This document shows, in pieces, positions 2,111-52,302 of a stretch of 64,000 bases of DNA. A program made the position numbers and the translations under genes. The first letter of the stretch is position 1. Each line of letters begins with the position of its first letter. This DNA is from a virus (taxonomy: Duplodnaviria > Heunggongvirae > Uroviricota > Caudoviricetes), in the IMG/VR virus record IMGVR_UViG_3300029849_000005, positions 19,937 through 83,936 of that record; one strand, written 5' to 3'. The notes under the pieces are model-generated. The model searched no databases and was not told the origin of the DNA. It was given only the letters and a program-made list of their open reading frames with translations.

Positions 2111-3475
2111 TTAAGTCAATACATAAGCATCTGTTTTAGTTCTTGATAAAGATACATATTGAAGCTGTCGTAGTTCTAATAAGTCTCTATCCAACTTAAG
2201 ATTACCGGTATCTACAAACACATTATTGTAAGAGCTGCCTTGACTCCTATGTGCTGTTATAGCGTATCCATAATCAAAAGTTTGTGGCTTAATTACTCTA
2301 TTATCAAATAACAGTGGTACTGGGGTTGCAAAGGACTTAGTCATGTCAAAATACTTACCCCATAAATATCCAGATTTAGTTCTATTACCCCACCTTTTCG
2401 CCTGTATAGCATCTAGCCTTATAGACTCAATCTGTTGTGCCAAAGTTTGCAGGTAGTCTGGATTTATGTCTGTTGGGTCTATTATGAATACGTCTAATAG
2501 CCATCTATCAACGCTATCATATAATCCCAATTCGAACCCTGGAAGTCTAGTAAAATGAGGTACATTCCTAGTGGTTCTTCTAATGCTTGTAATTATATAG
2601 TCTGAAGAGTTAAAGAACATTTCTCCATTATATTCAAAGTTCTCACAGCCAGTTAGAAACTCGAATTTATGATAAGGTTCATTGTCATTGTATAGTATTC
2701 TGCGTATACAATCATTGAATCCTTTAACTCGCTTATTAGTATAAGCTATCAGCTTAGTATAATTTACATCATTATGCTTTATTCCATGATTAATCTTATT
2801 AGCTGCATCAACCATAAACTGCTTAGTGTCATTATAACAAATGAGAGAACCCTTCTCTCCCATTCGAGTTTCGAATTTAGATATAGGATTCTCTCTTAAT
2901 GTTAATAATATTGGTGCTAATGCTGTATTCTCGTCTTGCCTAAATATCTTGGTTAGACGGACAACATTTTCATGACTAAACACTTTACTAAGACCTCCGT
3001 TCTTAACTGGGGCAATCTGTGCAACATCCCCTATAAATAAGATTTTGCACTGATGTGTTTCACAATAGTCTACAAGTAAATCATAAAGTTCATCACTAAC
3101 CATAGATGCCTCATCAATGATTATTAGTCCTTTGTTTGGAATGTCTCCCATACCATCGGAATAGAACTTCAAGTCTTTATAGTCTAAATTAAATATATCC
3201 AGTTTAGGGGAAAGTGCTAGCAGTTTATGTAATGTAGTAGCTCTATAGCCAGTAGCCATTTCAAGTACTGCTTTGGCTTTATGAGTAGGAGCACACAACT
3301 TAAAGAATCTACAACCTCTAGTACTATCTAGATATTGTACAAATTCATTCATAACAGCTGTCTTACCTACTCCTGCATAGCCAGTAAGAACTAATATCCT
3401 ATCTGGACTATCTAAAAACCTAATCATTCTATCTATAGCATATAGCTGTTCGTCTGACCAAGCTATTGTACTCAT
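2111..3475 (-). CDS. SF1B DNA helicase (Dda/RecD-like)
   Basis: Walker A LTGYAGVGKT, Walker B-like IIIDEASM, C-terminal ITAHRSQGSSY motif typical of RecD/Dda family. 454 aa. Confidence 0.8.
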   Translation of the reverse strand: MSTIAWSDEQLYAIDRMIRFLDSPDRILVLTGYAGVGKTAVMNEFVQYLDSTRGCRFFKLCAPTHKAKAVLEMATGYRATTLHKLLALSPKLDIFNLDYKDLKFYSDGMGDIPNKGLIIIDEASMVSDELYDLLVDYCETHQCKILFIGDVAQIAPVKNGGLSKVFSHENVVRLTKIFRQDENTALAPILLTLRENPISKFETRMGEKGSLICYNDTKQFMVDAANKINHGIKHNDVNYTKLIAYTNKRVKGFNDCIRRILYNDNEPYHKFEFLTGCENFEYNGEMFFNSSDYIITSIRRTTRNVPHFTRLPGFELGLYDSVDRWLLDVFIIDPTDINPDYLQTLAQQIESIRLDAIQAKRWGNRTKSGYLWGKYFDMTKSFATPVPLLFDNRVIKPQTFDYGYAITAHRSQGSSYNNVFVDTGNLKLDRDLLELRQLQYVSLSRTKTDAYVLT

Positions 3476-4053
3476 AGTTCTCTATTCCAAAATCTAAAGG
3501 TAATATCCTTTAATTTAGGACCGTCATCAGTCATTATCGTTTTATATAATCTCTGATTGGTATTTGGATTATCAAGTGGTCCACATTCCTCTATGTAAGG
3601 TCCTAACTTGATGTAATCGAAATTGTGCAAATCAATTTCATCTGCCAATGTAACTCTACCACTATACCACCCAATCTTTATATCAAGTGGTACTGTTTGC
3701 TGCCATTCCATTTCTGTTTCGGCAGGAATGGTTACTTTGGGAAACCTAATTTCCTTATGAATAGTAAACTTATCAGCCGTTTTAGTGGTAGTTAACGTCC
3801 TTACTAATCCAGCATAGTGATTAATGAGCTTAGGGTCGTTATCGCCACCCATAAAGCAAATGGCAGTAATTCCCTTATTCTCATTAATAAGCTTCTCTAT
3901 TCTAGTAATAGTCAGGACTTCCCCAACGTCTCCTGCCAAGTAAGAGCTATGACAGCCGTTGCAGTGACATGGACAATTAGATATGTTTATGGCTAGTGTA
4001 GTCTCGTCAGGAATTTCCCTGAAGACTATATCGAAACCTACATATTTAAGCAT
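3472..4053 (-). CDS. nrdG: anaerobic ribonucleotide reductase activating protein (radical SAM)
   Basis: CxxxCxxC cluster (CPCHCNGCHS). 193 aa. Immediately downstream of and overlapping nrdD. Confidence 0.8.
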   Translation of the reverse strand: MLKYVGFDIVFREIPDETTLAINISNCPCHCNGCHSSYLAGDVGEVLTITRIEKLINENKGITAICFMGGDNDPKLINHYAGLVRTLTTTKTADKFTIHKEIRFPKVTIPAETEMEWQQTVPLDIKIGWYSGRVTLADEIDLHNFDYIKLGPYIEECGPLDNPNTNQRLYKTIMTDDGPKLKDITFRFWNREL

Positions 4054-6112
4054 GAGTATAAAATCTTCTACTAGCTTCCTCTTGCCTTGCTTGGCTAAAG
4101 TTACTAATACGTTTCAAATAACCAATAACTCTAGTAGCATAATCAACGTTCTTACTCCCACATTTTGGACATTCCTTAAGATACCTTTTATCAATATGTC
4201 CACAATCATTACAAATAGTATTTGGAATATTAAATGTGAAATAATTAGTACCATTGACTGCTGCCACTCTCAACAAGTTACGATACTGTTCCTTACTAAG
4301 ATGTTCATCGAGATTCATATGCAATGCACTACCTCCGTCTAAGTATTGTACATATTCCTTGCCATGTAATTTAAACTTGTCAAGTACGGTAAGAGATGTG
4401 TCTTCAACAGCATAGAAATAGCTATTATAGCAATCTCTAGGAACTACATAACCTGCTTTCCTGTCCCAATTAGCATGTTTAACCCCAAGGTTCTCTGCTG
4501 GAACAAATTCTGTGTTAAACATTAACTCCTTAGTTCTCGCTTTACGATTTTCATCACTGATAGTTTTAAGGATAGATTGCATAAACTCTCTATAAGTTGG
4601 ATTATCATTAACTGGGATTCCTAAGAACTCCGCAGCCTCAATAACTCCATTAACACCTATAGTCAAATACTGCTTCTTCATATCAATGAATCCAGCTGTA
4701 TATACAGTAAGCAACCCGTCTTTTAAATAGTCTTTAAGCAATTCATTATATGCTGTTTGGAACTTATGAACTTTCTTCACATTCTCACGCAAATACTCAA
4801 TCATATCATATCCATTATTAACTGCATCCTGAACTAACCTATTGATATTTAAGGTCATTACTGACTTGCTACCAGTAGCAATACCACCAGCTCCAAGAGA
4901 ATAACTGAATTGATTATCAGTAACCTCATTACGAAGTCTGCAACAAGAAGATAAGGAATCAGGACTATCGGACATATAAGTAAAGAACGAGTGTCCTTTG
5001 CTATACATCTCTGCTGTAAAGTCTGCATACTCCTCATCAACAACATCCTCCCCGTTAGTCAAAAGCGCCATAGTTTCAACAGGGAATGTAAGAATACACT
5101 TAGTACGTTCCTCATTAAACCACTTAGCAAATTTCTTCTGCAACCAACTAAGAGATTCCCATTGAGGTTGTGTACCGTCTGGGAAATAGAACTCTCCAAA
5201 GATACCTTCAAAGTAGTTCTTATCAAAGTAACTGATATTCCAGAATACTGATTGGAAGTTACGAGCAGCTGCTGGCTGATTGATTGAGTATACAATCTGC
5301 TGGAACTTCTGCTCTAACGTCTTGTCAATATTTCTGTGTTTGTCAACCATTTCCTCTGGACGTTTCCAATAATCATCACCCCACTCTTTACGAGCAAAGT
5401 AATCAAAGTACATCAGAAACTCTCCAGTGGCTACTGCACCTGCAAATTGAGAACTAATCGCAAATACCAGATTAACGAACATGCCACAGAAAGAATCCAG
5501 GTTCTTGGGTCTGGCAGACAAACCTCCAATTGGCTGTAACCCCTCCAATAGAAAGGGATACATAGTGATAGCCACGCAGTAGGGCATAATCGATGTTTCA
5601 TCATGCTTATAAAGTAAATGTTGTTCCAGCATACGGATATATTCCTTAGCTAACTCCTCTCCATACAATTCTCTGATTTTATCAGTAAGAATTGCACGAT
5701 TTACCTTAATAACATCACCTTTGAACAATTCTCCATTTAAGGTTACAATGTTCTTCTCGGTAACATTAGCATTAGCATCGTATTTACTACCAGTTGCAGC
5801 ATTCTTGGCTTTAGCATAGTCTTTAATGAATTGTTTCTTCTCATTTAAGGCTCTACTTTCGGCTCTTTTACGCCTATACAAGATGAATGCCTTAGCAACA
5901 TCATAATAATCACATGCCATAAGAGCTTTCTCTAACTGGTCTTGAAGCTCCTCAACTGAAACTATGTTGTTAATATACAACTCATCTTTAATATCCTGAA
6001 GAATATCAGAATCAATTGGCTCGTTAACAGCGTTAAATGCCTTAGTAATTGCAGCATCAATCTTATTAACGTCGAAAGGTTCTACTTTTTTGTCTCTCTT
6101 AATTACTAACAT
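4046..6112 (-). CDS. nrdD: anaerobic ribonucleoside-triphosphate reductase (class III)
   Basis: 688 aa. N-terminal ATP-cone-like start. C-terminal glycyl-radical motif (RVIGYL) preceded by a Zn ribbon (CNDCGH...CPKCGS). Paired with nrdG. Confidence 0.9.
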   Translation of the reverse strand: MLVIKRDKKVEPFDVNKIDAAITKAFNAVNEPIDSDILQDIKDELYINNIVSVEELQDQLEKALMACDYYDVAKAFILYRRKRAESRALNEKKQFIKDYAKAKNAATGSKYDANANVTEKNIVTLNGELFKGDVIKVNRAILTDKIRELYGEELAKEYIRMLEQHLLYKHDETSIMPYCVAITMYPFLLEGLQPIGGLSARPKNLDSFCGMFVNLVFAISSQFAGAVATGEFLMYFDYFARKEWGDDYWKRPEEMVDKHRNIDKTLEQKFQQIVYSINQPAAARNFQSVFWNISYFDKNYFEGIFGEFYFPDGTQPQWESLSWLQKKFAKWFNEERTKCILTFPVETMALLTNGEDVVDEEYADFTAEMYSKGHSFFTYMSDSPDSLSSCCRLRNEVTDNQFSYSLGAGGIATGSKSVMTLNINRLVQDAVNNGYDMIEYLRENVKKVHKFQTAYNELLKDYLKDGLLTVYTAGFIDMKKQYLTIGVNGVIEAAEFLGIPVNDNPTYREFMQSILKTISDENRKARTKELMFNTEFVPAENLGVKHANWDRKAGYVVPRDCYNSYFYAVEDTSLTVLDKFKLHGKEYVQYLDGGSALHMNLDEHLSKEQYRNLLRVAAVNGTNYFTFNIPNTICNDCGHIDKRYLKECPKCGSKNVDYATRVIGYLKRISNFSQARQEEASRRFYTHA

Positions 6113-10745: not shown

Positions 10746-11754
10746 AAAGCTCGTAATATGCTACACGCCTCAACAATGTAGTAAATTCAGTAAAACCCGA
10801 CAACATATGACCATTATTAACAGGAAACACTCCAGACCTAAAATCCGGAACTGTTGATACCACTAACATATTAGCCTTAAGTGTGGGCTTTGCCTTATAT
10901 TCATTCTCTATGTACAATTTCAGCATCCACATATACATAGCCATTTGCCTAGCATAGTGATACTTATCAAAGCTCTCATGAAACTTAGTGAGATAATGTC
11001 CACTAGTCTTCAAGTCATTGAGAACTAATTCATTCGACTCTGGACTGTATGTAAAATTATCCAACTTAGCTTTTAGTTTGAGAACCTTACTAAGACCATT
11101 ATGCTCAACAAGCACATCTATTAATAGTACAGACTCATTCTTGGAGATTGGCTTCTCTAATAAATAGTCTGGATTCAATAAGGATTGTATTTGTGGATTA
11201 CATTCAACTGATACAATACATTCTCGTAGTTTGTCTCTAGATTTAGCATCAAGATAAATTGGAACCTTATCTGCAACATATTTGCTGCCCCACTCATAAG
11301 CTGTGCGTTGAGCATAATAGTTCTCGCATTTTATGCGCAGAGCATCCATTTTGTCTTCATCCATTTTACCTTTATAATAGCTAATCTTGTCAGACGCTAC
11401 TACTATCTCATCCTTAGTAACAACACCATTAGCTATAAATAAAGGATACAGCTCATCAGCCATGAATCCGGCTTTAGCTGTTGGTCTATCTACAGACTCT
11501 ACAAGAATAAAAGACTCTGGTTGCAGTACTAATTCATGTACTGCCGAACCAAAGTACAGCGAATCGGAGTATCTTCCATCAGCACCCAGTCCTGCTAAAT
11601 AAGCTTCTGGGCTACCTCCTTGTTCTGGGTTTATAAGCTTCAATCTAGAATTACTAATGTAATCAGAATAAGCTTCACTGAAATACTCCTCATCACTTAT
11701 CTCAAGGAACTTGATAGTTTCAATTAGTGGTGTAATTTTAATGTCTTTAAGCAT
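10717..11754 (-). CDS. putative PD-(D/E)XK family nuclease (RecB/YqaJ-like exonuclease)
   Basis: Candidate catalytic triad elements GSAVHE ... IDVLVEH ... LNDLKT (D...D/ExK). 345 aa. Sits in the replication/recombination module. Confidence 0.45.
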   Translation of the reverse strand: MLKDIKITPLIETIKFLEISDEEYFSEAYSDYISNSRLKLINPEQGGSPEAYLAGLGADGRYSDSLYFGSAVHELVLQPESFILVESVDRPTAKAGFMADELYPLFIANGVVTKDEIVVASDKISYYKGKMDEDKMDALRIKCENYYAQRTAYEWGSKYVADKVPIYLDAKSRDKLRECIVSVECNPQIQSLLNPDYLLEKPISKNESVLLIDVLVEHNGLSKVLKLKAKLDNFTYSPESNELVLNDLKTSGHYLTKFHESFDKYHYARQMAMYMWMLKLYIENEYKAKPTLKANMLVVSTVPDFRSGVFPVNNGHMLSGFTEFTTLLRRVAYYELYGYDADGIL

Positions 11755-12250
11755 AACTCCTCATGAATTGATAAGCATCTATAATCTCATCTTTACATAA
11801 GGAGAATACTTTAAACATAGGAAAGTCAATAGTCCTTTCTGTATGCATTAATAATGCAGGCAGTCCAGAACGTTGACATTTTAGTACGTTACTTAAAGAA
11901 TCGTCAATAAAGACATCCACTTTACCTTTAATCATATCAGCCTTATTACCGTGTTGGTAATACATTTGATAGACTGGTCTATCTGGGAATCCATTTCGTC
12001 TTAGCCATTCTTTAGTCCAAGTTTTATTGTTTACACGTTTAGTGCAATATAATTCCGGAACAAAATCAGGTCTGTTAACTACTTTGAGATTTAACCAGAA
12101 GTCTCTGTCCTTATTAAGAATACGTTGTACATTCCTAGTAATCATGCTATCTTCAAGCATACGTGGATTACTAGCTGTATCGAAGTACTCACAGTAAGCA
12201 CCCCAAAAGTCAGCTAGACAATCGTCAATATCTAAACCTATTCTAAACAT
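11747..12250 (-). CDS. HAD-family 5'(3')-deoxyribonucleotidase-like
   Basis: N-terminal DxDxx motif (IGLDIDDCLADFWGAY), as in 5'(3')-deoxyribonucleotidases. 167 aa. Confidence 0.6.
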   Translation of the reverse strand: MFRIGLDIDDCLADFWGAYCEYFDTASNPRMLEDSMITRNVQRILNKDRDFWLNLKVVNRPDFVPELYCTKRVNNKTWTKEWLRRNGFPDRPVYQMYYQHGNKADMIKGKVDVFIDDSLSNVLKCQRSGLPALLMHTERTIDFPMFKVFSLCKDEIIDAYQFMRSYA

Positions 12251-19656: not shown

Positions 19657-20499
19657 TTATAAAGTATAGCCTTTAGCATCACATACTAATTTAATTTGGT
19701 TCTTGCGAGTTTCCCACTGAGATATATGGAACTTCACTTCATCTTCCAAAGAATACAAGATTCTATTTCTAAGAACCTTTAATTGGTCAGTAGTTAGTTC
19801 TGTATACTTCTTACTCTTCAAATTAACCATAGAACGAAGCTGTGAATAGCTAAGTCCTTTAGGAGTAACATAAAGAGGCATTGTGGGCTTCAGACCTAGT
19901 CTTTCCTTCGCCACTTCAATCTTATCTCTTATCTGACCTGTCTTAGGGTCTTTCTCCACTAAGTCCTTGCTCTCTTGAGCAGTGAACCATAGACCTTGCT
20001 TGAGAATAAATGTAAGAGTAATGTGTTGTTTGTTGAACTTTCCCAGTCTGTCCAAACAACCTTCGCGTACTGTCTCTGTTGGAATGTCTCCAAACTCTTT
20101 AGGACAGCCGCACATAGTTCCTTCGATTGGATACTCTTTCGGGTCTATACCGTCCTTATTAATATCCAAGAAAGAGACTAAAGCCTCTAGGAACTTAAAC
20201 CTTGGCATATGCTGCTCCTGTTCTAACCAGCGCAAGAACAATTCTGCGTTACAACGCTGACGCTGGTCTTTAATAATGTCCAATAGAACATAACGACCAG
20301 GATAGTCCTTGTTAGTATTATAGAGCATAGAATCACAATGTGCATAGAAATTACGAAGTTCTTCTTCAGTACAATCAACCAAGCGTTTCTCCTCTTGTAC
20401 TAAAGCTCCATTTACTTCTTGCTTACGACCCTTCCAAATGAAAGAGTTGATGTCATTATTCTTTCTATCGATAGCTGATGCCAATTTCTCTCTGAACAT
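19657..20499 (-). CDS. hypothetical protein
   Basis: 280-aa ORF. Confidence 0.45.
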   Translation of the reverse strand: MFREKLASAIDRKNNDINSFIWKGRKQEVNGALVQEEKRLVDCTEEELRNFYAHCDSMLYNTNKDYPGRYVLLDIIKDQRQRCNAELFLRWLEQEQHMPRFKFLEALVSFLDINKDGIDPKEYPIEGTMCGCPKEFGDIPTETVREGCLDRLGKFNKQHITLTFILKQGLWFTAQESKDLVEKDPKTGQIRDKIEVAKERLGLKPTMPLYVTPKGLSYSQLRSMVNLKSKKYTELTTDQLKVLRNRILYSLEDEVKFHISQWETRKNQIKLVCDAKGYTL

Positions 20500-22324: not shown

Positions 22325-22966
22325 TTACTTGCGACCTAGACCATTATAGAAATCAAGTATTGCATTCTCTTTACGAAGCCAAGTAGCCTGTTCTTTAGCC
22401 ATATCAAGAATAGTACGACTAATAGATTCTTCTTCTACTTGCTCTTTAACTAACATACCTTCATCCTCATCCTCTCCATTCAACCATTGGAATGTAGCCC
22501 AATCACTCTCTTTTTGAGCTTGGTCTACAATCTTATTAATACCACGAGTAGTCTCAATCTCCCTATCTACTGTGGCAGCAAAGGGCATGACTCTATCAGT
22601 GATTTCAACATTAATGGCTGGAACAGGCGGATATTGGAACAGAGCATCGTTAGTGGTTAGATATTCAAATATCCAAGAATGATGCAAATATTCTTCCTTA
22701 GCACGACCTCTCCAGTAAATACCTAGCTTTGGTAAACCCTCTACTTCAAAGTAATTGGCAAAGGTCATATACAGAGCATGGTTGGCAAGTTCGGCTGACA
22801 TCTGTTTTACCAACATCTCAACCATTACAGTTGATAGTGGGCAAACACGTCTAGACTTATCAATCACCTGCTCTGTATACTTCATAGTAGGTTCAGCGCC
22901 TACGGTTTGAACTCCTTCGCTTGTCTTCTCCTGTATTGGATTTCCGTCTTTGTCTAGCATTCTCAC
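22325..22966 (-). CDS. ferritin-like diiron-domain protein
   Basis: Helical ferritin-like E...EExxH pattern (ELANHALYMTFANYFE ... AKEEYLHH). 213 aa. Confidence 0.45.
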   Translation of the reverse strand: MRMLDKDGNPIQEKTSEGVQTVGAEPTMKYTEQVIDKSRRVCPLSTVMVEMLVKQMSAELANHALYMTFANYFEVEGLPKLGIYWRGRAKEEYLHHSWIFEYLTTNDALFQYPPVPAINVEITDRVMPFAATVDREIETTRGINKIVDQAQKESDWATFQWLNGEDEDEGMLVKEQVEEESISRTILDMAKEQATWLRKENAILDFYNGLGRK

Positions 22967-32098: not shown

Positions 32099-32572
32099 TT
32101 ATCCTATTTCGTTACTAGCATTATAAGCAAGCTTGTCGGCTTCCTTATTATGTTCATCACTTGCGTGACCTTTACACCACTCAACAGACACTACTTTATG
32201 CCTGTTCACAGCCTTATCAAGACGTTCCCACAAATCAGTATTGGCTTTCCTCTTCCACCCTTTAGTAAGAGTTCCTACAATATACATAGAATCTGTTACT
32301 ATTGTAATTTCAGAAGGTTCCTTTATGGATTCCAGGGCAACTATGGCAGCCATTTGCTCCATTCGCTGATTGGTGCTGTTCTTATACATCTTACTGTATT
32401 GGAATATCTTCTTGTCATCCTCTAAAATGACAAAGCCTATTCCTCCTTGATTTCTCGCAGGAGAATAGGCACCATCACAGTATATTCTGTACTTATGCGT
32501 CGGCATTAGGATTCTCAACAAAATCCTCATCATCCTCATCTTCTTCGGTTTCGGATATGACATCTTCATCAA
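32099..32572 (-). CDS. rnhA: ribonuclease H
   Basis: RNase HI motifs: YCDGA...GGIG, MAAIVALE, IVTDSMY, WCKGHASDEHNKEADKLA. The true start may be an internal Met. Confidence 0.8.
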   Translation of the reverse strand: MMKMSYPKPKKMRMMRILLRILMPTHKYRIYCDGAYSPARNQGGIGFVILEDDKKIFQYSKMYKNSTNQRMEQMAAIVALESIKEPSEITIVTDSMYIVGTLTKGWKRKANTDLWERLDKAVNRHKVVSVEWCKGHASDEHNKEADKLAYNASNEIG

Positions 32573-38533: not shown

Positions 38534-39991
38534 TTATTTGTTGTCTTTCTTCTCCGTAGAATAGTCCTTACGGTCGAGTTCCCACTGATACTCACACATC
38601 TGAGTGATTGCTTCAAGCTTCTCTGTACCCAGAACGAGTTTGAGAGCATTTACCAATCTTTCAGCCGGAGTTTCCACAACAGCTTTCTTGGATGCAAGTC
38701 CAAGTTGACGTTGATAAGATTCAACGCTAGCTTTGATATGGAACGATGTTACATGGGTTTCTTCTGTAAAGATAAGTTTGGATTTGGTTGATTCAACGAT
38801 TTCAGCCATAAATGCCGGAGCAATTTCAGCTTCTTGAATGTAGTTACATACTTCACTCAAATCATCGTCGATTGTATATCCTTCTTCAGCGGTGAAGGTA
38901 GAACGGATGAATTTCTCCGCAGTTTCAGCGTCCAGACAGTCCATGGTAATCACAGAACCAATTCTCTTACCTCTCAAGAAGGTAGGTTCAATCAATTCAA
39001 TGTGATTAGTAGTGAACAAGGTGATTACGTTCATGTCTTTGGTATCACCACCGTCCAGAGTATTCAGGATGTCTTGCATAGCAGCATCTCTGTTACCTCT
39101 AGTTACTTGGTCAATATCTTCAACAAATACGACAACACCATGGCCCGAACGGTCAACAACTTTACACATGCGCAGAGTTTCTGCAAGAAGAGAAGGATTC
39201 TTCAAATACACGAATGACCAGCCGTTTGTCACAGCATCTTTAGCCAGCTTAAATGCCAGCAAGGTCTTACCTGTACCATATTTACCTTCCAGCAAACAAC
39301 CGTACTTCAATGGAATACCTTTAGCCAGACATTTCTCCGGATACAAGATTCTTGAACGTAGCGGTTGCAATTCAAATTCAGTCTTCTTAGAAAGAACCAT
39401 GAATTGTTTCTCAATGCCGGCAAGTGTCATGATAGTAGGTTCAGACAGATTGCTGATTTCCAGTGCTTGATTCTTGTAGATAGACTCCGATGCTAACAGC
39501 TCTTTAGTTCTGTCAACAATATCATCAATCAATGACTGGTATTTGAACTGGCATTGTCCTTTAATAAGGAGCAAATGACGGTCATTGTCATAGTTGATGT
39601 TGATTTCAGAATCTTCTCCCAATTCTTCAAGGCTGATTTTACCAAACGGAACCTTGGTACGAGAACCGTCTGCCAGAACAACGTCTACGGTATCAATATT
39701 GCTGTTTCCAGAAGGACTGTTATCCTCCTTACTAACGGCAGAACCGAAGATTTCATTGATTGCTCTGTTCAACTGATATACACCGTCCGGTTTCCAACAA
39801 AGCAGCGAGTATTTGAAACTTGCCATTTTCTTGGACTGTTTGATTTCACCTTCGATGAATCCCAGAGCATCAGCATACTTCACGTTGCTTTGGAGCACTT
39901 CAATCATTCTCTGTTTCTGAGTTTCCTCGTACTTGTTAACTCTCTGCTTAATAGCAGCTGTAGTTCCTTGCGGAATAATGTTCTTTGCCAT
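38534..39991 (-). CDS. AAA+ ATPase
   Basis: Walker A GKYGTGKT, Walker B VVVFVEDID, sensor TTN. 485 aa with an N-terminal domain of unknown function. Confidence 0.75.
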   Translation of the reverse strand: MAKNIIPQGTTAAIKQRVNKYEETQKQRMIEVLQSNVKYADALGFIEGEIKQSKKMASFKYSLLCWKPDGVYQLNRAINEIFGSAVSKEDNSPSGNSNIDTVDVVLADGSRTKVPFGKISLEELGEDSEININYDNDRHLLLIKGQCQFKYQSLIDDIVDRTKELLASESIYKNQALEISNLSEPTIMTLAGIEKQFMVLSKKTEFELQPLRSRILYPEKCLAKGIPLKYGCLLEGKYGTGKTLLAFKLAKDAVTNGWSFVYLKNPSLLAETLRMCKVVDRSGHGVVVFVEDIDQVTRGNRDAAMQDILNTLDGGDTKDMNVITLFTTNHIELIEPTFLRGKRIGSVITMDCLDAETAEKFIRSTFTAEEGYTIDDDLSEVCNYIQEAEIAPAFMAEIVESTKSKLIFTEETHVTSFHIKASVESYQRQLGLASKKAVVETPAERLVNALKLVLGTEKLEAITQMCEYQWELDRKDYSTEKKDNK

Positions 39992-40353: not shown

Positions 40354-40449
40354 CGAACGCCCATGTTTACTCACAATTAACAGTTCTCAAAGAGTAGTGT
40401 TGTTAGTGACTTCATGATAAATTCTATTTTAAACTGAAATAATTAGTAG

Positions 40450-40521
40450 TTGGGCTACCAGGATTCGAACCTGGGCTACAAGAGTCAAAACCTTGTGTGA
40501 CTACCACTACACCATAGCCCA
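40450..40521 (-). tRNA. tRNA-Gln (anticodon TTG)
   Basis: Acceptor TGGGCTA/TAGCCCA. Anticodon loop TTTTGAC. T arm CCAGG-TTCGAAT-CCTGG. Confidence 0.65.
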
Positions 40522-40523
40522 GT

Positions 40524-40543
40524 AAAAGGAGTCCGAAGACTCC
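40524..40543 (-). terminator. GGAGTC-TTCG-GACTCC hairpin plus U-run between the PurA-like gene and tRNA-Gln
   Basis: Perfect 6-bp stem with a UUCG tetraloop, followed by TTTT on the minus strand. Overlaps the TAG stop by 1 nt. Confidence 0.5.
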
Positions 40544-41610
40544 TAAACTAACTTATCGAATATCATGGGTTGTATTGACATCCATAAATTCGCTAGCATT
40601 TCTTGCTCTGCGTCAGATGCTTCATCCCAATGTGATACGTACAATTTCTCCGTTCGTTCATTCCTATAAGGAACTTTAAATGAACGGTTAATGCGTACAC
40701 TGTGTGCGAATAGGTCTTTGTCGAAATCAATAGCCCTAAGCGTCTTCTGGAAATCGTTGAACTTATTATTAGGGTCATCGACATCCCTAACAGACATTCC
40801 AGAAGGAAATGGGCCGTTACCATGCCTTGTTATATAAGGACGAGTTACATAACAAGTTTGGATTTCTTTACGTATGCCTGCTTTCCGCAACAGCTCGTAA
40901 GCGTTTTGTGAAGTTGTATTAGACGGAGTGCAATAAGGCATTATGCCGAATCTTTGGTCAAGCAATATTCCCTGTGAACCTTCAAACACTAGGTTGTCAT
41001 AGTTTAACAAGCAATCTTCATTAACCGTACCTGTATGTAAGAAATAAGCATGTGCTAACCTACACCAGTTGTCTAGGTCTATCGAGGGATATTTACTAGA
41101 CATGTTGTAATAGTTATCCACTATGGCATTTAATTTCTCACGTAGTATGTAAGGATTCATACAATCTACAACTGTTAAGCTGTATCCTGCCTTAACTCGG
41201 TCCAAACAAGCTTTAAACCCTGTACCTACAGTACCATGTCGTAAGTTCTCTTCGTTATTAACTTGGGAATAGACATCGAAGGGAATTACAACTTGGCAGT
41301 GAGGGTGATACTGAACAATGGGACGAACTCCCATTTTAGCTAAGTCTGCACCCTCTAACATAGAGGTAATTGGGTCTACAGTACAGTATTCGGACCAATA
41401 CGTCGGCACTCCAAGTAAGGTTCCGCTGCCAAAGTTACTAAAGGTGTGCATCATGTCTCCATGCTTTACAGTATGTCCTACTTGATGTCCACCACTAAAC
41501 CTGACTACTAATACAGACTCTCGCTTACCTATGTACTTGTTACATAAGTTGTGAACTGTCTGTCCCTTACCTTCGTCTCCAAAGAATGTTCCTAATACAA
41601 TACTAATCAT
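40543..41610 (-). CDS. adenylosuccinate synthetase (PurA) family protein, short form lacking the GTP-base-recognition region (PurZ-like candidate)
   Basis: PurA motifs: VLGTFFGDEGKGQ (P-loop), RFSGGHQVGHTV, GTVGTGFKA, FEGSQGILLD...YCTPSNTT, TRHGNGPFP. Only 355 aa. No TKLD/guanine-binding segment. Confidence 0.8.
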   Translation of the reverse strand: MISIVLGTFFGDEGKGQTVHNLCNKYIGKRESVLVVRFSGGHQVGHTVKHGDMMHTFSNFGSGTLLGVPTYWSEYCTVDPITSMLEGADLAKMGVRPIVQYHPHCQVVIPFDVYSQVNNEENLRHGTVGTGFKACLDRVKAGYSLTVVDCMNPYILREKLNAIVDNYYNMSSKYPSIDLDNWCRLAHAYFLHTGTVNEDCLLNYDNLVFEGSQGILLDQRFGIMPYCTPSNTTSQNAYELLRKAGIRKEIQTCYVTRPYITRHGNGPFPSGMSVRDVDDPNNKFNDFQKTLRAIDFDKDLFAHSVRINRSFKVPYRNERTEKLYVSHWDEASDAEQEMLANLWMSIQPMIFDKLV

Positions 41611-41616
41611 TTCAGT

Positions 41617-42549
41617 TTAATAAAATTTGTCATTACTATCAGATGGCACATCTTGCCATTCTTGACTAACAGAAGCACTAGGAGCTAAACCTTCAGCAGG
41701 CTCCTCATAGTTCTCTTTAATTGCGGTGACAATCACCTTGTCTACTTCTCCAGATGCACATGTTAATACATTCTGTCCAAGTAAAGTCTTCCAAGATTCA
41801 GCAACCCTTGAGCCATGACTGGCATTAGTAATGTGAATGTGGAATACATGGTACTGTTCCTTTGCTTTGTCAAGAGCTTCTTGACAAGTAATGGTTTTAG
41901 CACCTTTTTGATATCCTAGAACACGTTCTAAGTAACACCCCTCTACCTTATCGAGATTTGGTTCATCTCCAATAGTAAATAGGAATCCCTTAGTGTGTCT
42001 TTCAAACCAGGAATCAGTTTCAGTATGATAACCTGCCACAATATGAGCTAGTAGATAGCTTTCGCCTCTATTACCTCCTCCTCCACCTTCAATCACGAAC
42101 GATTGTAAAGTGTCAAGAATTTTAGCTGTATCAGACTCAAACTGCCCAATTTGAATTGGATATCGGTCATAAACGTGGTCCCCAACTGCCATAAACATGA
42201 TTTGTGGGTCACGTACACCTAGTTGAATGAGAGAGTCCATAATCTTAGGGAATTGGTCTCTAATCATTTCATAAGGTGTGTCCATCATTGAACCAGTAAC
42301 GTCTAGCGCAATGATTATCGGAGTAGAGAAAGGATGTTCTTTAGAATCACGAGATTCACGAACACCCACGTTAACCATTTCTTGCCTTATCTGCGTGTTA
42401 TACTGCCTAACATTGTTGTTAAGCGATGCAGCAGTATTACATGCATTAATGGCATGGCTACTAAAGAGTTCATCCCTAGTAGAGGTGTACAAACCTCTAC
42501 TGCTGGCCTCTACATCATAAGCAATTCTAGAATAACTACCTGCTCCCAT
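41617..42549 (-). CDS. von Willebrand factor A (vWA) domain protein
   Basis: MIDAS-like IIALDVTGSM (DxTGS), then later T and D elements. 310 aa. Confidence 0.6.
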   Translation of the reverse strand: MGAGSYSRIAYDVEASSRGLYTSTRDELFSSHAINACNTAASLNNNVRQYNTQIRQEMVNVGVRESRDSKEHPFSTPIIIALDVTGSMMDTPYEMIRDQFPKIMDSLIQLGVRDPQIMFMAVGDHVYDRYPIQIGQFESDTAKILDTLQSFVIEGGGGGNRGESYLLAHIVAGYHTETDSWFERHTKGFLFTIGDEPNLDKVEGCYLERVLGYQKGAKTITCQEALDKAKEQYHVFHIHITNASHGSRVAESWKTLLGQNVLTCASGEVDKVIVTAIKENYEEPAEGLAPSASVSQEWQDVPSDSNDKFY

Positions 42550-42552
42550 AAA

Positions 42553-42921
42553 TTACTCATTTACAATTGCAGCAGCGTCATCCAAATTAATGGATTCTGA
42601 TGCATCAGCGGGAAATTCTTCTGCATCGACTTGCATAGCTAGAGCAAGTTCAATCTTTGCAACACGCAGTTTACGTGCCAATTCATGTCTCGTTCTTACC
42701 CATTCAGCCGGATTCAGTCCTTCTCCCGGATTCAAAGAGTCTCTTGATTTAACAGCTAGGTCATTGTGTTTGTTGATTTCTCCCTGAATGCGAAGTACTT
42801 TCAACTTACAATCCTGAACAAATCTGTCTTCCTCGATTTTAGCCAATTCATACAGATTCTGCGCTCTTGCATCAAGTACACTTTGTCCACTCTTACTTAA
42901 TTTCTCTTTAAAACTGCTCAT
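42553..42921 (-). CDS. coiled-coil protein
   Basis: 122-aa ORF. Confidence 0.4.
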   Translation of the reverse strand: MSSFKEKLSKSGQSVLDARAQNLYELAKIEEDRFVQDCKLKVLRIQGEINKHNDLAVKSRDSLNPGEGLNPAEWVRTRHELARKLRVAKIELALAMQVDAEEFPADASESINLDDAAAIVNE

Positions 42922-45173: not shown

Positions 45174-45225
45174 AATTCTAATAATTAGGTTAATAATGAT
45201 TTTCGCAAACTCTTATTAGCCAGCG

Positions 45226-45313
45226 CGGAGAGTGCTGGATTCGAACCAGCGGAACCCTTTTGAGGTTCGGTCCCTTAGCAGGGGACTGGTTTAAGCCACT
45301 CACCCAACTCTCC
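45226..45313 (-). tRNA. tRNA-Ser (anticodon GCT), type II
   Basis: Acceptor GGAGAGT/ACTCTCC. Anticodon stem GTCCC/GGGAC with loop CTGCTAA. Long variable arm. T arm GCTGG-TTCGAAT-CCAGC. Confidence 0.75.
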
Positions 45314-45400: not shown

Positions 45401-47362
45401 TTACTTTACAGGAGGAAAATTATCACCTTTAGCTGGTGATTCTTCCGGCTTCTTGCCAGTGATTATTTGCTTAAGCGAATCTGCAATAGGCAAATTACGG
45501 GCAATCTCCAAGCTAGGAGCAAGATTCTTAGCCATATTAGCCATGAACTGCCCAGCAGTATTGGAGTCACCATACACAGTAACATTACCAAGCTGGATAT
45601 GTTCAAACACCTTAGCGTTGGCTTCAGCAACTTCTTTCCACCTGTCGGTCATTGCATATTGAACGATTGCTTCAGGATGCATACCTGATTTAATCATATG
45701 TTCAACTGCAAGAGCCGGAGCCATTTCCATTGCCTGTTTCTGTTCAGCTTCTGCCATTAAAGATGCTTTCTTACCTTCAGCTTCGGCAAGAAGTTTCTTC
45801 TTAGTACCTTCAGCTTCTGCTTCCAGTTGCATCTTAGTAGCATTTGCTTTAGCTTCTGCTGCTTTCAAGATTTTAGCTGCTTCCGCTTCTGCTTCAAGAA
45901 TGGCTACACTCTTAACAGCTTCTGCTTCAATCTTAGCTTTCTCTTTGGCCTTCTCGGCAGGTATAATCACTTCGGCTTTAAGCTTAGCTTCTTCAGCTTT
46001 AGCTTTAGCTTCATTAACTTCTACCTGACGTTCCTGCTCTGTTTTAGCAACTGCCATTTGAGCTTCAACTTTGGAAGTACCAGCTACTCTTTCAGCTTCA
46101 GCTTTAGCTTTCTCTGCTTCTCCCTTAGCTTTGGAAACTTCAATAGTAGCTTTCTGTTCAGCTACTCCTGCTGCTTTCTCTGCTTCAGCTGCCTTTTGAC
46201 GGGCTTCTGATTCATACTGTGCAGTTTTAGCTTCTTTCTCCTGCTGTGCTTTAACAGTTTCAGCTTCTTGGTTTTGTGCTGCTACTGCCATACGAACTTC
46301 CTTCTCTGCTTCTGCTTCTGCCTTAGCGGCTTCAGCTTTGGCAGTAAATTCTGCTTCTTTAGCAGTTGCATAAGCTTGCTGCTCTGCAATCTTGGCAGCT
46401 CTCAATGCTTCTTGCTCGGCAACTTTGGAAGCTTCTTCAGTTTGGGCTGTAGCCACACCAATTTCACGTTCCTTTCTTTGCTCTGCAACAGCAATTTGTT
46501 GCTCCTTATGCTGCTCGGCCAATTGAGTTTCTTTCTCTTTAGTGGTCTTAGCAATAGCAACTTCTTTCTCCCTGTTAGTTTCAGCCACTATAGTTTCTTG
46601 CTCCTTAGTAGCTGCTGCAATTGCAATCTCCTTCTCTCTCGTAGTTTGAGCTATCTGGATTGCTCCTTTCTTCTCTTCTTCTGCGATATCAGCTTGTGAT
46701 TGCGCTCTTGCTTTAGTCTCTTCTTTCTTACCAAGATTATCAATATATTGAGCAGCATCTTGAATGTCACTGATATTGATATTCATCAGATAAAGACCAA
46801 GTTTGTTCAATTCTGTATTGATATTGTCTCTAGCTTGAGCTAGGAACTTGTCTCTGTCAGAGTTAAGCTCTTCAATAGTCATCGAAGCAATAACAAGCCT
46901 CATCTGACCATAAACAATATCTGAAATCAAACTTTCTTTAACGTCATCATCAGCACCTAGTAAGCGATTAGCAGCATTCTGCATAATCAGCGGTTCTTGG
47001 CTAATAGCAACAGTTACAGTGGTAGGGATAGTTACACGAATATTTTGAGCTGACAAAGCATTCTTCAATACAAGATTCAATTGAATCGGTTGCATTGACA
47101 TTACTTCATAACCCTGTATAATCGGCCATACAAAAGCTGCACCACCATGATAAACCTTGGCAGTTTTAATTTCAACTTCTCTGTCAACCAGATTACCTTT
47201 AGCGTCGCGTTCGCTAACTTTCTCTTTGTGAGAGCCTGTTTTACCATAAACTACCAACAATTCGTCAGATTTACATTTACGGTAGCGGGATAGAATCCCA
47301 ATGATAGTGATGATTGCAACTAGTACAACTACACCAACGATAATTAATGATGTCATTTCCAT
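45401..47362 (-). CDS. flotillin-like SPFH/band-7 protein
   Basis: N-terminal TM, SPFH-domain region, long Ala/Glu-rich coiled-coil (EA repeats) and a flotillin-type C-terminal segment. 653 aa. Confidence 0.8.
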   Translation of the reverse strand: MEMTSLIIVGVVVLVAIITIIGILSRYRKCKSDELLVVYGKTGSHKEKVSERDAKGNLVDREVEIKTAKVYHGGAAFVWPIIQGYEVMSMQPIQLNLVLKNALSAQNIRVTIPTTVTVAISQEPLIMQNAANRLLGADDDVKESLISDIVYGQMRLVIASMTIEELNSDRDKFLAQARDNINTELNKLGLYLMNINISDIQDAAQYIDNLGKKEETKARAQSQADIAEEEKKGAIQIAQTTREKEIAIAAATKEQETIVAETNREKEVAIAKTTKEKETQLAEQHKEQQIAVAEQRKEREIGVATAQTEEASKVAEQEALRAAKIAEQQAYATAKEAEFTAKAEAAKAEAEAEKEVRMAVAAQNQEAETVKAQQEKEAKTAQYESEARQKAAEAEKAAGVAEQKATIEVSKAKGEAEKAKAEAERVAGTSKVEAQMAVAKTEQERQVEVNEAKAKAEEAKLKAEVIIPAEKAKEKAKIEAEAVKSVAILEAEAEAAKILKAAEAKANATKMQLEAEAEGTKKKLLAEAEGKKASLMAEAEQKQAMEMAPALAVEHMIKSGMHPEAIVQYAMTDRWKEVAEANAKVFEHIQLGNVTVYGDSNTAGQFMANMAKNLAPSLEIARNLPIADSLKQIITGKKPEESPAKGDNFPPVK

Positions 47363-52227: not shown

Positions 52228-52230
52228 AAG

Positions 52231-52302
52231 TGCCCCATGTTGGACTCGAACCAACGCCATACAAGTTTAGAATTTGCTCTTCTACCACTGAAGTAATGGG
52301 GC
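52231..52302 (-). tRNA. candidate amber-suppressor tRNA (anticodon CTA, reads UAG)
   Basis: Exact 73-nt canonical layout: acceptor GCCCCAT/ATGGGGC, D arm CTTC-AGTGGTA-GAAG, anticodon loop TTCTAAA (U33, A37), T arm GTTGG-TTCGAGT-CCAAC. The anticodon stem has only 3 Watson-Crick pairs plus G·U. Confidence 0.55.

Follow-up and report, generated by a model that had tools for sequence, protein, structure and literature searches.

Results

The locus

Here, we analyze a 64-kb stretch of DNA from a large, uncultivated phage of the class Caudoviricetes (IMG/VR record IMGVR_UViG_3300029849_000005, positions 19,937 to 83,936), called the window below, which covers about one third of a genome of roughly 180 kb, and we focus on a gene for a PurA-like enzyme and on the gene that accompanies it. 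The PurA-like ligase, 355 amino acids (aa) long and with an ATG start, is encoded on the minus strand (40543–41610) and belongs to a phage-restricted clade of the PF00709 superfamily. Its companion, located on the same strand 6 nucleotides (nt) upstream of the PurA-like ATG (41617–42549), encodes a 310-aa protein with a vWA/MIDAS fold that matches PHROG 2971 (E 4.5e-41) and no Pfam family; we refer to it as the partner. Further upstream, a lineage-specific accessory gene for a 122-aa protein (42553–42921, minus strand) stops 3 nt before the partner ATG and is probably co-transcribed with the pair. As read from the sequence, a terminator-like hairpin (GGAGTC-TTCG-GACTCC followed by TTTT; 40524–40543, minus strand) overlaps the stop codon of the PurA-like gene, and the presence of this hairpin with its T-run after the stop suggests that the PurA-like gene ends a small operon.

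An earlier note on this DNA had read the PurA-like open reading frame (ORF) as a candidate PurZ or, alternatively, as an unusual adenylosuccinate synthetase. The motifs it listed are present, namely GDEGKGQ (residues 11–17), GGHQVGH, GTVGTG, FEGSQG and TRHGNGPFP, except that the letters it gave as SSNTT after FEGSQG read PSNTT. Pfam assigns the protein to PF00709 with an E-value of 8.8e-35 (120.7 bits against a gathering threshold of 27), in a match that covers profile positions 1–277 of 416 only. E. coli PurA has 432 aa, 77 more than the protein, which bears out the estimate of about 80 missing residues. In the alignment, the absent stretch corresponds for the most part to the segment that separates TKLD from the guanine element S414–P417 near the C-terminus, an element that the protein also lacks. 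That a TKLD-type motif for recognition of the GTP base is lacking is also essentially right: the query reads SHWD, Lys331 is replaced by His in the query and by His or Cys across the family, and just 30 of 50 family members have Asp333.

The AlphaFold2 model of the PurA-like protein (pLDDT 92, pTM 0.91) retrieves bacterial PurA structures as its top Foldseek matches (E 1e-22, TM 0.73, 24–26% identity), and sequence databases hold 5,217 homologs at E ≤ 1e-5, on contigs of 160–400 kb. When scored with the PurA equivalog models (TIGR00184 and NF002223), the protein reaches 92.7 bits against a cut-off of 395.55 and 100.7 bits against a cut-off of 402, about a quarter of each, while E. coli PurA as a control scores 697 and 688. 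By these sequence scores the ORF is not a canonical PurA. We also considered an archaeal-type short PurA and rejected it, as the protein scores 61.8 bits with the NCBIfam archaeal model NF003295, whose cut-off is 368, the identity is 16–17% and the archaeal structures rank between 26 and 35 in Foldseek. The description as an unusual adenylosuccinate synthetase is correct, and it understates the case: the protein falls below every PurA equivalog cut-off, its substrate site is remodeled, and the vWA partner gene had been overlooked.

Conservation of the gene pair

How firmly is the partner tied to the PurA-like gene? We surveyed the neighborhoods of 80 IMG/VR loci plus others, tracking the genes of the window as relatives diverge. 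The partner is the sole neighbor that is kept: a homolog lies upstream on the same strand at 62 of 64 non-identical loci, and the two exceptions are cut off by contig ends. When the ORFs from 26 diverse loci are clustered all against all, just two families are universal (26/26 each), that of the PurA-like protein and that of the partner, followed in frequency by the 122-aa ORF (12/26). The latter accompanies the pair in relatives down to approximately 45% identity of the PurA-like protein and is outside the universal core. The reverse search, starting from the partner, finds a PurA-like gene at 61 of 61 viral loci, downstream on the same strand in 60; at the 61st, the partner match probably lies near the start of the locus.

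The same arrangement is found in annotated phages of other groups. Homologs of the partner are located directly upstream of the PurA-like gene in Mycobacterium phage Blubba (gp249, E 8e-35), Rhizobium phage RHph_TM61 (EVB64_018, E 5e-35) and Vibrio phage phiKT1024 (UOK16853, E 5e-47); all three belong to PHROG 2971 and are annotated as "hypothetical". The partner family as a whole comprises 1,835 clusters at 50% identity. A search for the partner in 185,579 prokaryotic species genomes, with narrow patterns that distant cellular homologs could escape, gave one match, in a metagenome-assembled genome in which the pair is intact. The partner was not found in the true Z-phages S-2L and phiVC8. Neither protein of the pair has a match in PADLOC, and the 122-aa protein has none in PADLOC, Pfam or PHROG. 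The literature that we searched contains no description of the PurA-like/vWA pairing and no function for the clade. The PurA-like gene and the vWA gene very probably constitute a two-gene functional module; within this known superfamily, the clade has a rebuilt pocket and an obligate vWA partner that had previously gone unremarked.

The partner combines a MIDAS motif with an N-terminal arm, ~60 residues long, that is conserved and unique to it. Its sequence begins with Met-Gly in 100 of 101 close homologs and in 126 of 135 diverse ones, Gly4 is present in 98%, position 6 is aromatic and Tyr11 is conserved; in about 5% of partners the Gly is preceded by additional residues (MAKGDW, MIKGGY, MSKTSY). 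A search of BFVD with the partner returned only generic vWA proteins and one uncharacterized Mycobacterium phage protein.

Two unusual forms of the partner were seen along the way. In a metagenomic protein of 320 aa (P0209), ~100 residues from the start of the 122-aa protein are joined to the vWA core of the partner at "ALDVTGSM", and the N-terminal arm of the partner is missing; the junction is a microhomology, and this single sequence is probably a deletion or a chimera. On a 399-kb contig of a jumbo-phage lineage (L005, 7891–9396), the partner variant is 501 aa long, with a tblastn match confined to its first ~154 residues, and a 161-aa gene is inserted between this variant and the PurA-like gene.

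A conserved catalytic core in a rebuilt pocket

We mapped the PurA-like protein residue by residue onto E. coli PurA, a mapping that is more secure in the N-terminal 280 residues than in the C-terminal alignment and at the R143 column. The phosphoryl-transfer core is conserved (E. coli G12, D13, K16, G17, G40, H41, Q224 and T239), with D12, K15, H46, Q213 and T228 of the query in the positions of E. coli D13, K16, H41, Q224 and T239. D13, K16, G40, H41 and Q224 are conserved across the family as well. In PurA, the retained P-loop Asp13, Lys16, Gly40/His41, Gln224 and Thr239 serve for binding of the nucleoside triphosphate (NTP) with Mg2+ and phosphorylation of O6 of a 6-oxopurine nucleotide.

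The nucleotide and amine sites have changed far more. N38, T129, T239, R143 (in trans), V273 and R303 are the ligands of the 5′-phosphate and ribose of inosine monophosphate (IMP) in PurA, and only T239 is kept among them: the query has N38Q, T129V, V273H and R303T, and a Gly at the R143 column. The V273H exchange creates a TRHG motif that is present in 118 of 120 family members. The L-aspartate loop G298–R305 (TTGRxRR) reads NDFQKTLR in the query, with R305 alone retained and T300–T301 replaced by Phe-Gln. In its place the clade has a motif of its own, N-x-[FYW]-N-[DE]-[FY]-Q-[KG]-x-[FLM]-R, and N282, N285, Q288 and R292 are conserved across the family. The catalytic core is thus predicted to be competent and of the PurA type, and the substrate pocket around it is rebuilt.

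R303 contacts both the O2′ of IMP and the aspartate substrate, and the equivalent of V273 is positioned next to C2′ (PMC8342488), so that the universal changes cluster at the ribose-2′/aspartate corner of the active site. In PurZ, which has a deoxynucleotide substrate, the R303 equivalent is displaced and makes no contact with O2′ (PMC8342488). Might the enzyme then be specific for deoxynucleotides, converting dIMP via succinyl-dAMP to dAMP and thereby rebuilding the dATP pool, for instance against host defenses that deaminate or deplete (d)ATP? The universal V273H exchange and the loss of R303 at the contacts of C2′ and O2′ would fit such a role, as would the parallel absence of the R303–O2′ contact in the deoxynucleotide-using PurZ. 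In addition, the module is restricted to phages, and in some of them it lies amid genes that resemble nucleotide-pool or counter-defense functions, such as the NAD-salvage-like genes of TM61 described below. However, the argument is purely inferential, it leaves the vWA partner unexplained, and we found no link to it in PADLOC or in the anti-defense literature; we consider a deoxy-specific enzyme quite unlikely.

A phage clade of PurA-like proteins

Four other phage protein groups, at 30–33% identity to the query, share the same signature, in which Asp13 is kept, the TRHG motif and the aromatic-Gln loop are present, R303 is lost and no Arg is found at the R143 column. In Mycobacterium cluster C phages this is a 442-aa protein annotated as "PurA-like adenylosuccinate synthetase" (e.g. 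Blubba gp250); the others are the PurA of Rhizobium phage RHph_TM61 (EVB64_019, 416 aa), a protein of the Vibrio phage phiKT1024 group (UOK16855, 378 aa) and a 365-aa protein from a human-gut phage. The phages of the clade have hosts among Actinobacteria, Alphaproteobacteria and Vibrio, and the clade is also present in human gut samples. A census of viral PF00709 proteins counted 481 members, only 147 of which are PurZ or PurZ0, and leaves the remainder undiscussed (PMC12884076).

In a small neighbor-joining tree, built without archaeal PurA and PurZ0, which were compared at the level of structure only, the phage PurA-like clade stands apart from E. coli PurA plus PurZ with a bootstrap support of 192/200, and the short proteins among which the query falls form a monophyletic family with a support of 199/200. 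Because the basal members of the clade are full length, the shortness of the query is a secondary loss that occurred in parallel to that of other short forms. The earlier note had taken the short length as a hallmark of PurZ; with members of 442 and 416 aa in the same clade, length does not carry that meaning here.

The relationship to PurA raises the question of whether the enzyme could be an ordinary auxiliary PurA that acts alone, forming adenylosuccinate from IMP, L-Asp and GTP to provide AMP for an AT-rich genome, with the vWA gene as an unrelated neighbor. The conserved catalytic core would be in line with this, as would the top matches to bacterial PurA in sequence and structure and the A+T content of 60–65%, and the full-length members from Mycobacterium phages retain D333 and the SWGP element. 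Nonetheless, the scores of the protein amount to about one fourth of the PurA equivalog cut-offs, T300, T301, R303, N38, T129, K331 and S414–P417 are replaced or absent, and the R143 column is without Arg. Moreover, the vWA gene is found at every assessable locus and in unrelated phage groups while the other neighbors turn over, a constancy that would not be expected of an unrelated neighbor. A PurA that works by itself is therefore unlikely in our view.

Comparison with PurZ

The suggestion that the gene encodes a candidate PurZ is not supported: the PurZ profile, the residue at position 13, the tree, the Foldseek ranks and tblastn searches are all contrary to it. The NCBIfam PurZ model NF038379, whose cut-off is 300, gives the query 22.2 bits, where the controls S-2L PurZ, phiVC8 PurZ and E. 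coli PurA score 349.8, 397.2 and 126.7 bits, respectively. In a tree of 767 PurA-superfamily proteins, 99% of the true PurA sequences keep the essential Asp13 of the P-loop, whereas Ser takes its place in 100% of 147 phage PurZ/PurZ0 proteins (PMC12884076), and the S14D mutation reportedly abolishes substrate selectivity (cited in bioRxiv 10.1101/2025.10.22.683976). The query has Asp rather than Ser, as do 110 of 110 family members with a recognizable P-loop and the relatives from Mycobacterium, Rhizobium, Vibrio and gut phages.

In phiVC8 PurZ, residues F12, S14 and T262 make room for dGMP's 2-amino group, and F295 and Y298 stack on the adenine of ATP (bioRxiv 10.1101/2025.10.22.683976). We compared F12, S14, F295 and Y298, and F12 alone is matched in the query (F10), the S14 column being occupied by Asp. 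A VFLNFxxY-type motif is absent; instead, the family has (S/T)HxDE in its C-terminal strand, where E. coli PurA has TKLD, in a region where the alignment is less certain than at the N-terminus. In the neighbor-joining bootstraps the family groups with PurZ in 0 of 200. Among the Foldseek matches PurZ0 ranks 17th, S-2L PurZ 30th and phiVC8 PurZ 36th–42nd, with 12–17% identity and behind bacterial and eukaryotic PurA, of which about 29 chains precede the solved PurZ structures, and tblastn with true PurZ proteins barely detects the ORF (E 0.027 and 0.19).

The companions of PurZ were not found in the window either. The earlier observation that no DatZ or MazZ is evident holds for the window, in which Pfam detects no HD or MazG domain among 51 ORFs, and tblastn with DatZ, MazZ, DpoZ and PrimPol of S-2L and phiVC8 gave nothing in these 64 kb, about a third of the genome.

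Some features do resemble PurZ. The length is similar (355 versus 343–359 aa), a Phe precedes the P-loop Gly as F12 does in phiVC8 PurZ, nucleotide-metabolism genes are present in the window, and the protein matches PHROG 1211, whose label, "2-aminooxy adenylosuccinate synthetase", is a PurZ-type name. This label, however, also spans the PurA-like proteins of Mycobacterium cluster C phages, which have Asp13. A PurZ or PurZ0 that condenses dGMP with aspartate and starts dZTP synthesis, such that 2-aminoadenine replaces adenine, is highly improbable and already refuted at the level of sequence by the low NF038379 score, the Asp at position 13, the bootstraps and the rank of the PurZ structures between 17th and 42nd. 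The PurA-like enzyme is almost certainly not a PurZ, and in the sequence there is no evidence for 2-aminoadenine in the DNA of this phage.

Discussion

A possible two-subunit nucleotide ligase

What reaction might the module carry out? We give about even weight to the interpretation that the query is a diverged member of the PurA superfamily that has kept its catalytic core and forms one half of a phage two-gene module, the two proteins acting together as a two-subunit nucleotide ligase. Chemistry of the PurA type, that is, phosphoryl transfer and amination, is rather probable. The enzyme would use IMP (or dIMP) and an NTP, not necessarily GTP, to form a 6-phosphoryl-purine nucleotide, from which an amine would displace the phosphate, yielding an adenine nucleotide substituted at N6. 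Free L-aspartate may be this amine, a proposal in which we have somewhat less confidence than in the ligase itself. The simplest product would then be (deoxy)adenylosuccinate, which the host PurB could convert to (d)AMP, and the outcome for the phage would be a supply of adenine nucleotides that is built and regulated unlike the host route. In this scheme the vWA partner would be an obligate subunit, either replacing functions that the enzyme has lost (the second protomer, the aspartate loop) or positioning or delivering the amine.

A different amine would lead to a different product. After PurA-type activation, the N-terminal Gly of the partner could be the acceptor, so that the protein becomes N-linked to C6 of the purine, or another small amine could be used to form a novel N6-substituted nucleotide, with the MIDAS positioning the substrate. 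The aspartate loop is indeed remodeled, with T300, T301 and R303 gone, the extreme N-terminus of the partner is unusually conserved, and the order of the genes, together with their distance of 6 nt, suggests that the two proteins are co-expressed in stoichiometric amounts. A Gly at position 2 favors removal of the initiator Met, which leaves a free glycine amine. Yet the partners with extra residues before the Gly, about 5%, do not fit, and R305 is retained. The aspartate-using PurZ is also without R303 and T300; together with the retained R305, this means that the loop changes do not exclude aspartate. We know of no precedent for N6-linked purinylation of a protein. An amine other than aspartate seems fairly unlikely to us, be it the partner or a small molecule.

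Several considerations weigh against the two-subunit ligase. The substrates proposed for it follow solely from the residues that are kept or lost. A conserved adjacency argues for a functional link between two genes, which is not necessarily a physical one, and no fusion of the partner with the PurA-like protein is found among the 150 best partner representatives. The R143 column is in a variable region, and a clade-conserved Arg (R138 in the query), located 4–5 residues upstream of it, may substitute for Arg143. Lastly, the small size of the neighbor-joining tree and its restricted set of sequences limit how far the position of the clade can be pressed.

Neighboring genes

Could a further gene belong to the module? 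A gene for an AAA ATPase of 485 aa (38534–39991, minus strand; PF00004, PHROG 10440), with weak similarity in PADLOC to the defense protein IetA, is located two genes downstream of the PurA-like gene. We rejected it as a third component, as it is present at 7 of 12 loci at 60–95% identity, at 1 of 26 at 50–60% and at 0 of 26 below 50%; being kept only in close relatives, it is not in the core module.

The surroundings of the pair in other phages contain genes of some interest. In cluster C mycobacteriophages, as in Blubba (L008, 1–411), a Ser/Thr kinase gene, gp248, lies directly upstream of gp249–gp250, an arrangement that resembles the triads of Ter systems, which consist of a vWA protein, a kinase and a phosphatase. 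In Rhizobium phage RHph_TM61 (L009, 1–2230), genes annotated as encoding a phosphoribosyltransferase-like protein, a nicotinamide mononucleotide (NMN) adenylyltransferase/NUDIX protein and a HAD hydrolase are located ~4 kb from the pair. They form an NAD-salvage-like cluster, which may be a nucleotide-pool or counter-defense neighborhood. A related 188-kb contig (L004, 19274–21080) carries a Band-7 gene and two TerD-domain genes ~9 kb from the PurA-like pair, and the window itself encodes an SPFH/Band-7 protein of 653 aa (45401–47362, minus strand). Ter-like stress-response genes thus seem to recur in these phages.

The wider window

Every gene of the window is on one strand, and the GC content is 35–40%. 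Megablast with 10 kb of the sequence against 50,697 annotated phage records found no close relative, and many nearly identical copies occur in IMG/VR, the contigs being up to 270 kb long. We scanned 51 distinct ORFs of the window with Pfam, most of which have no Pfam family.

The nucleotide-metabolism genes named in the earlier note were recovered in part. The dUTPase is present (672–1208), and the anaerobic ribonucleotide reductase is an NrdD with an ATP-cone (4046–6112), adjoined by a weak 4Fe-4S (NrdG-like) match (3472–4053, minus strand). For the 5′-deoxyribonucleotidase-like HAD enzyme we found only a sub-threshold NT5C match (11747–12250, minus strand; E 0.016, 15.5 bits where the cut-off is 24.8). 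A ferritin-like protein (22325–22966) and an RNase H (32099–32572), both on the minus strand, are encoded as well.

A tRNA-Gln gene (40449–40521) follows beyond the hairpin at the PurA-like stop. It is one of 29 predicted tRNA genes that form a dense array (26237–59707) covering most amino acids. Among them, a tRNA with anticodon CTA (52230–52302, minus strand), labeled "Pyl" by ARAGORN, is an amber suppressor, hinting at a possible reassignment or suppression of TAG in part of the gene set. Two overlapping tRNA calls, 45210–45286 (plus strand, Arg) and 45225–45313 (minus strand, Ser), probably represent one real gene and one artifact.

Annotation and significance

In RefSeq, the PurA-like gene of Mycobacterium cluster C phages is named "2-aminooxy adenylosuccinate synthetase" (NC_023733, NC_041901, NC_054716, NC_023737, NC_067270 and others), whereas the GenBank originals of these records read "PurA-like adenylosuccinate synthetase". 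Given the Asp13 in the one member that we aligned, Blubba gp250, the PurZ name is probably a misannotation. Scans that equate a short phage PurA homolog with a Z-genome will over-call phages with 2-aminoadenine.

The two-gene module spans thousands of large phages and has no described function. A kept core, a rebuilt pocket and a metal-binding partner are what would be expected of a new nucleotide chemistry, or of a route to adenine nucleotides that is independent of the host and regulated differently. If the coupling were indeed to an amine other than aspartate, the pair would be a phage system for nucleotide conjugation of a new kind. The module is directly testable in the mycobacteriophage system.

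Comparison with known systems

How does the module compare with systems that are already understood? Canonical PurA (E. coli 1CG0/1ADE; H. pylori 6ZXQ/9F17) has the fold, the GDEGKG P-loop, Asp13, Lys16, His41, Gln224 and Thr239 in common with the query. In contrast to it, the query is 77 residues shorter, has a replaced pocket and always occurs with a vWA gene. Archaeal PurA (Pyrococcus horikoshii 5K7X/2D7U) is also short, at ~340 aa, and is missing part of the C-terminal region; it is, however, a bona fide enzyme for GTP, IMP and Asp, with 16–17% identity to the query.

PurZ and PurZ0 (phiVC8 6FM1, S-2L 7ODX, Gordonia phage 7VF6) are likewise phage-encoded, short and without TKLD and the R303 contact. 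They differ in having Ser at position 13 and, unlike the query, in keeping N38, T129, V273 and T301. PurZ co-occurs with DatZ, MazZ and DpoZ or with DutZ and DmtZ (PMC12884076).

The closest counterparts are the PurA-like proteins of Mycobacterium cluster C phages, Rhizobium phage TM61 and the Vibrio phage phiKT1024 group, which belong to the clade of the query and share both its signature and the upstream PHROG 2971 partner. Of these proteins, those from Mycobacterium and Rhizobium phages are full length, D333 and SWGP are retained in the one from Mycobacterium, and N38 and T129 in the one from Vibrio. In the literature that we searched, these proteins have no functional characterization. Finally, vWA/MIDAS proteins are known as adaptors, including BchD of Mg-chelatase, NorD, CbbO and BatB, which pair with AAA+ ATPases, whereas in the phage module described here the sole universal neighbor of the vWA protein is a PurA-like enzyme.

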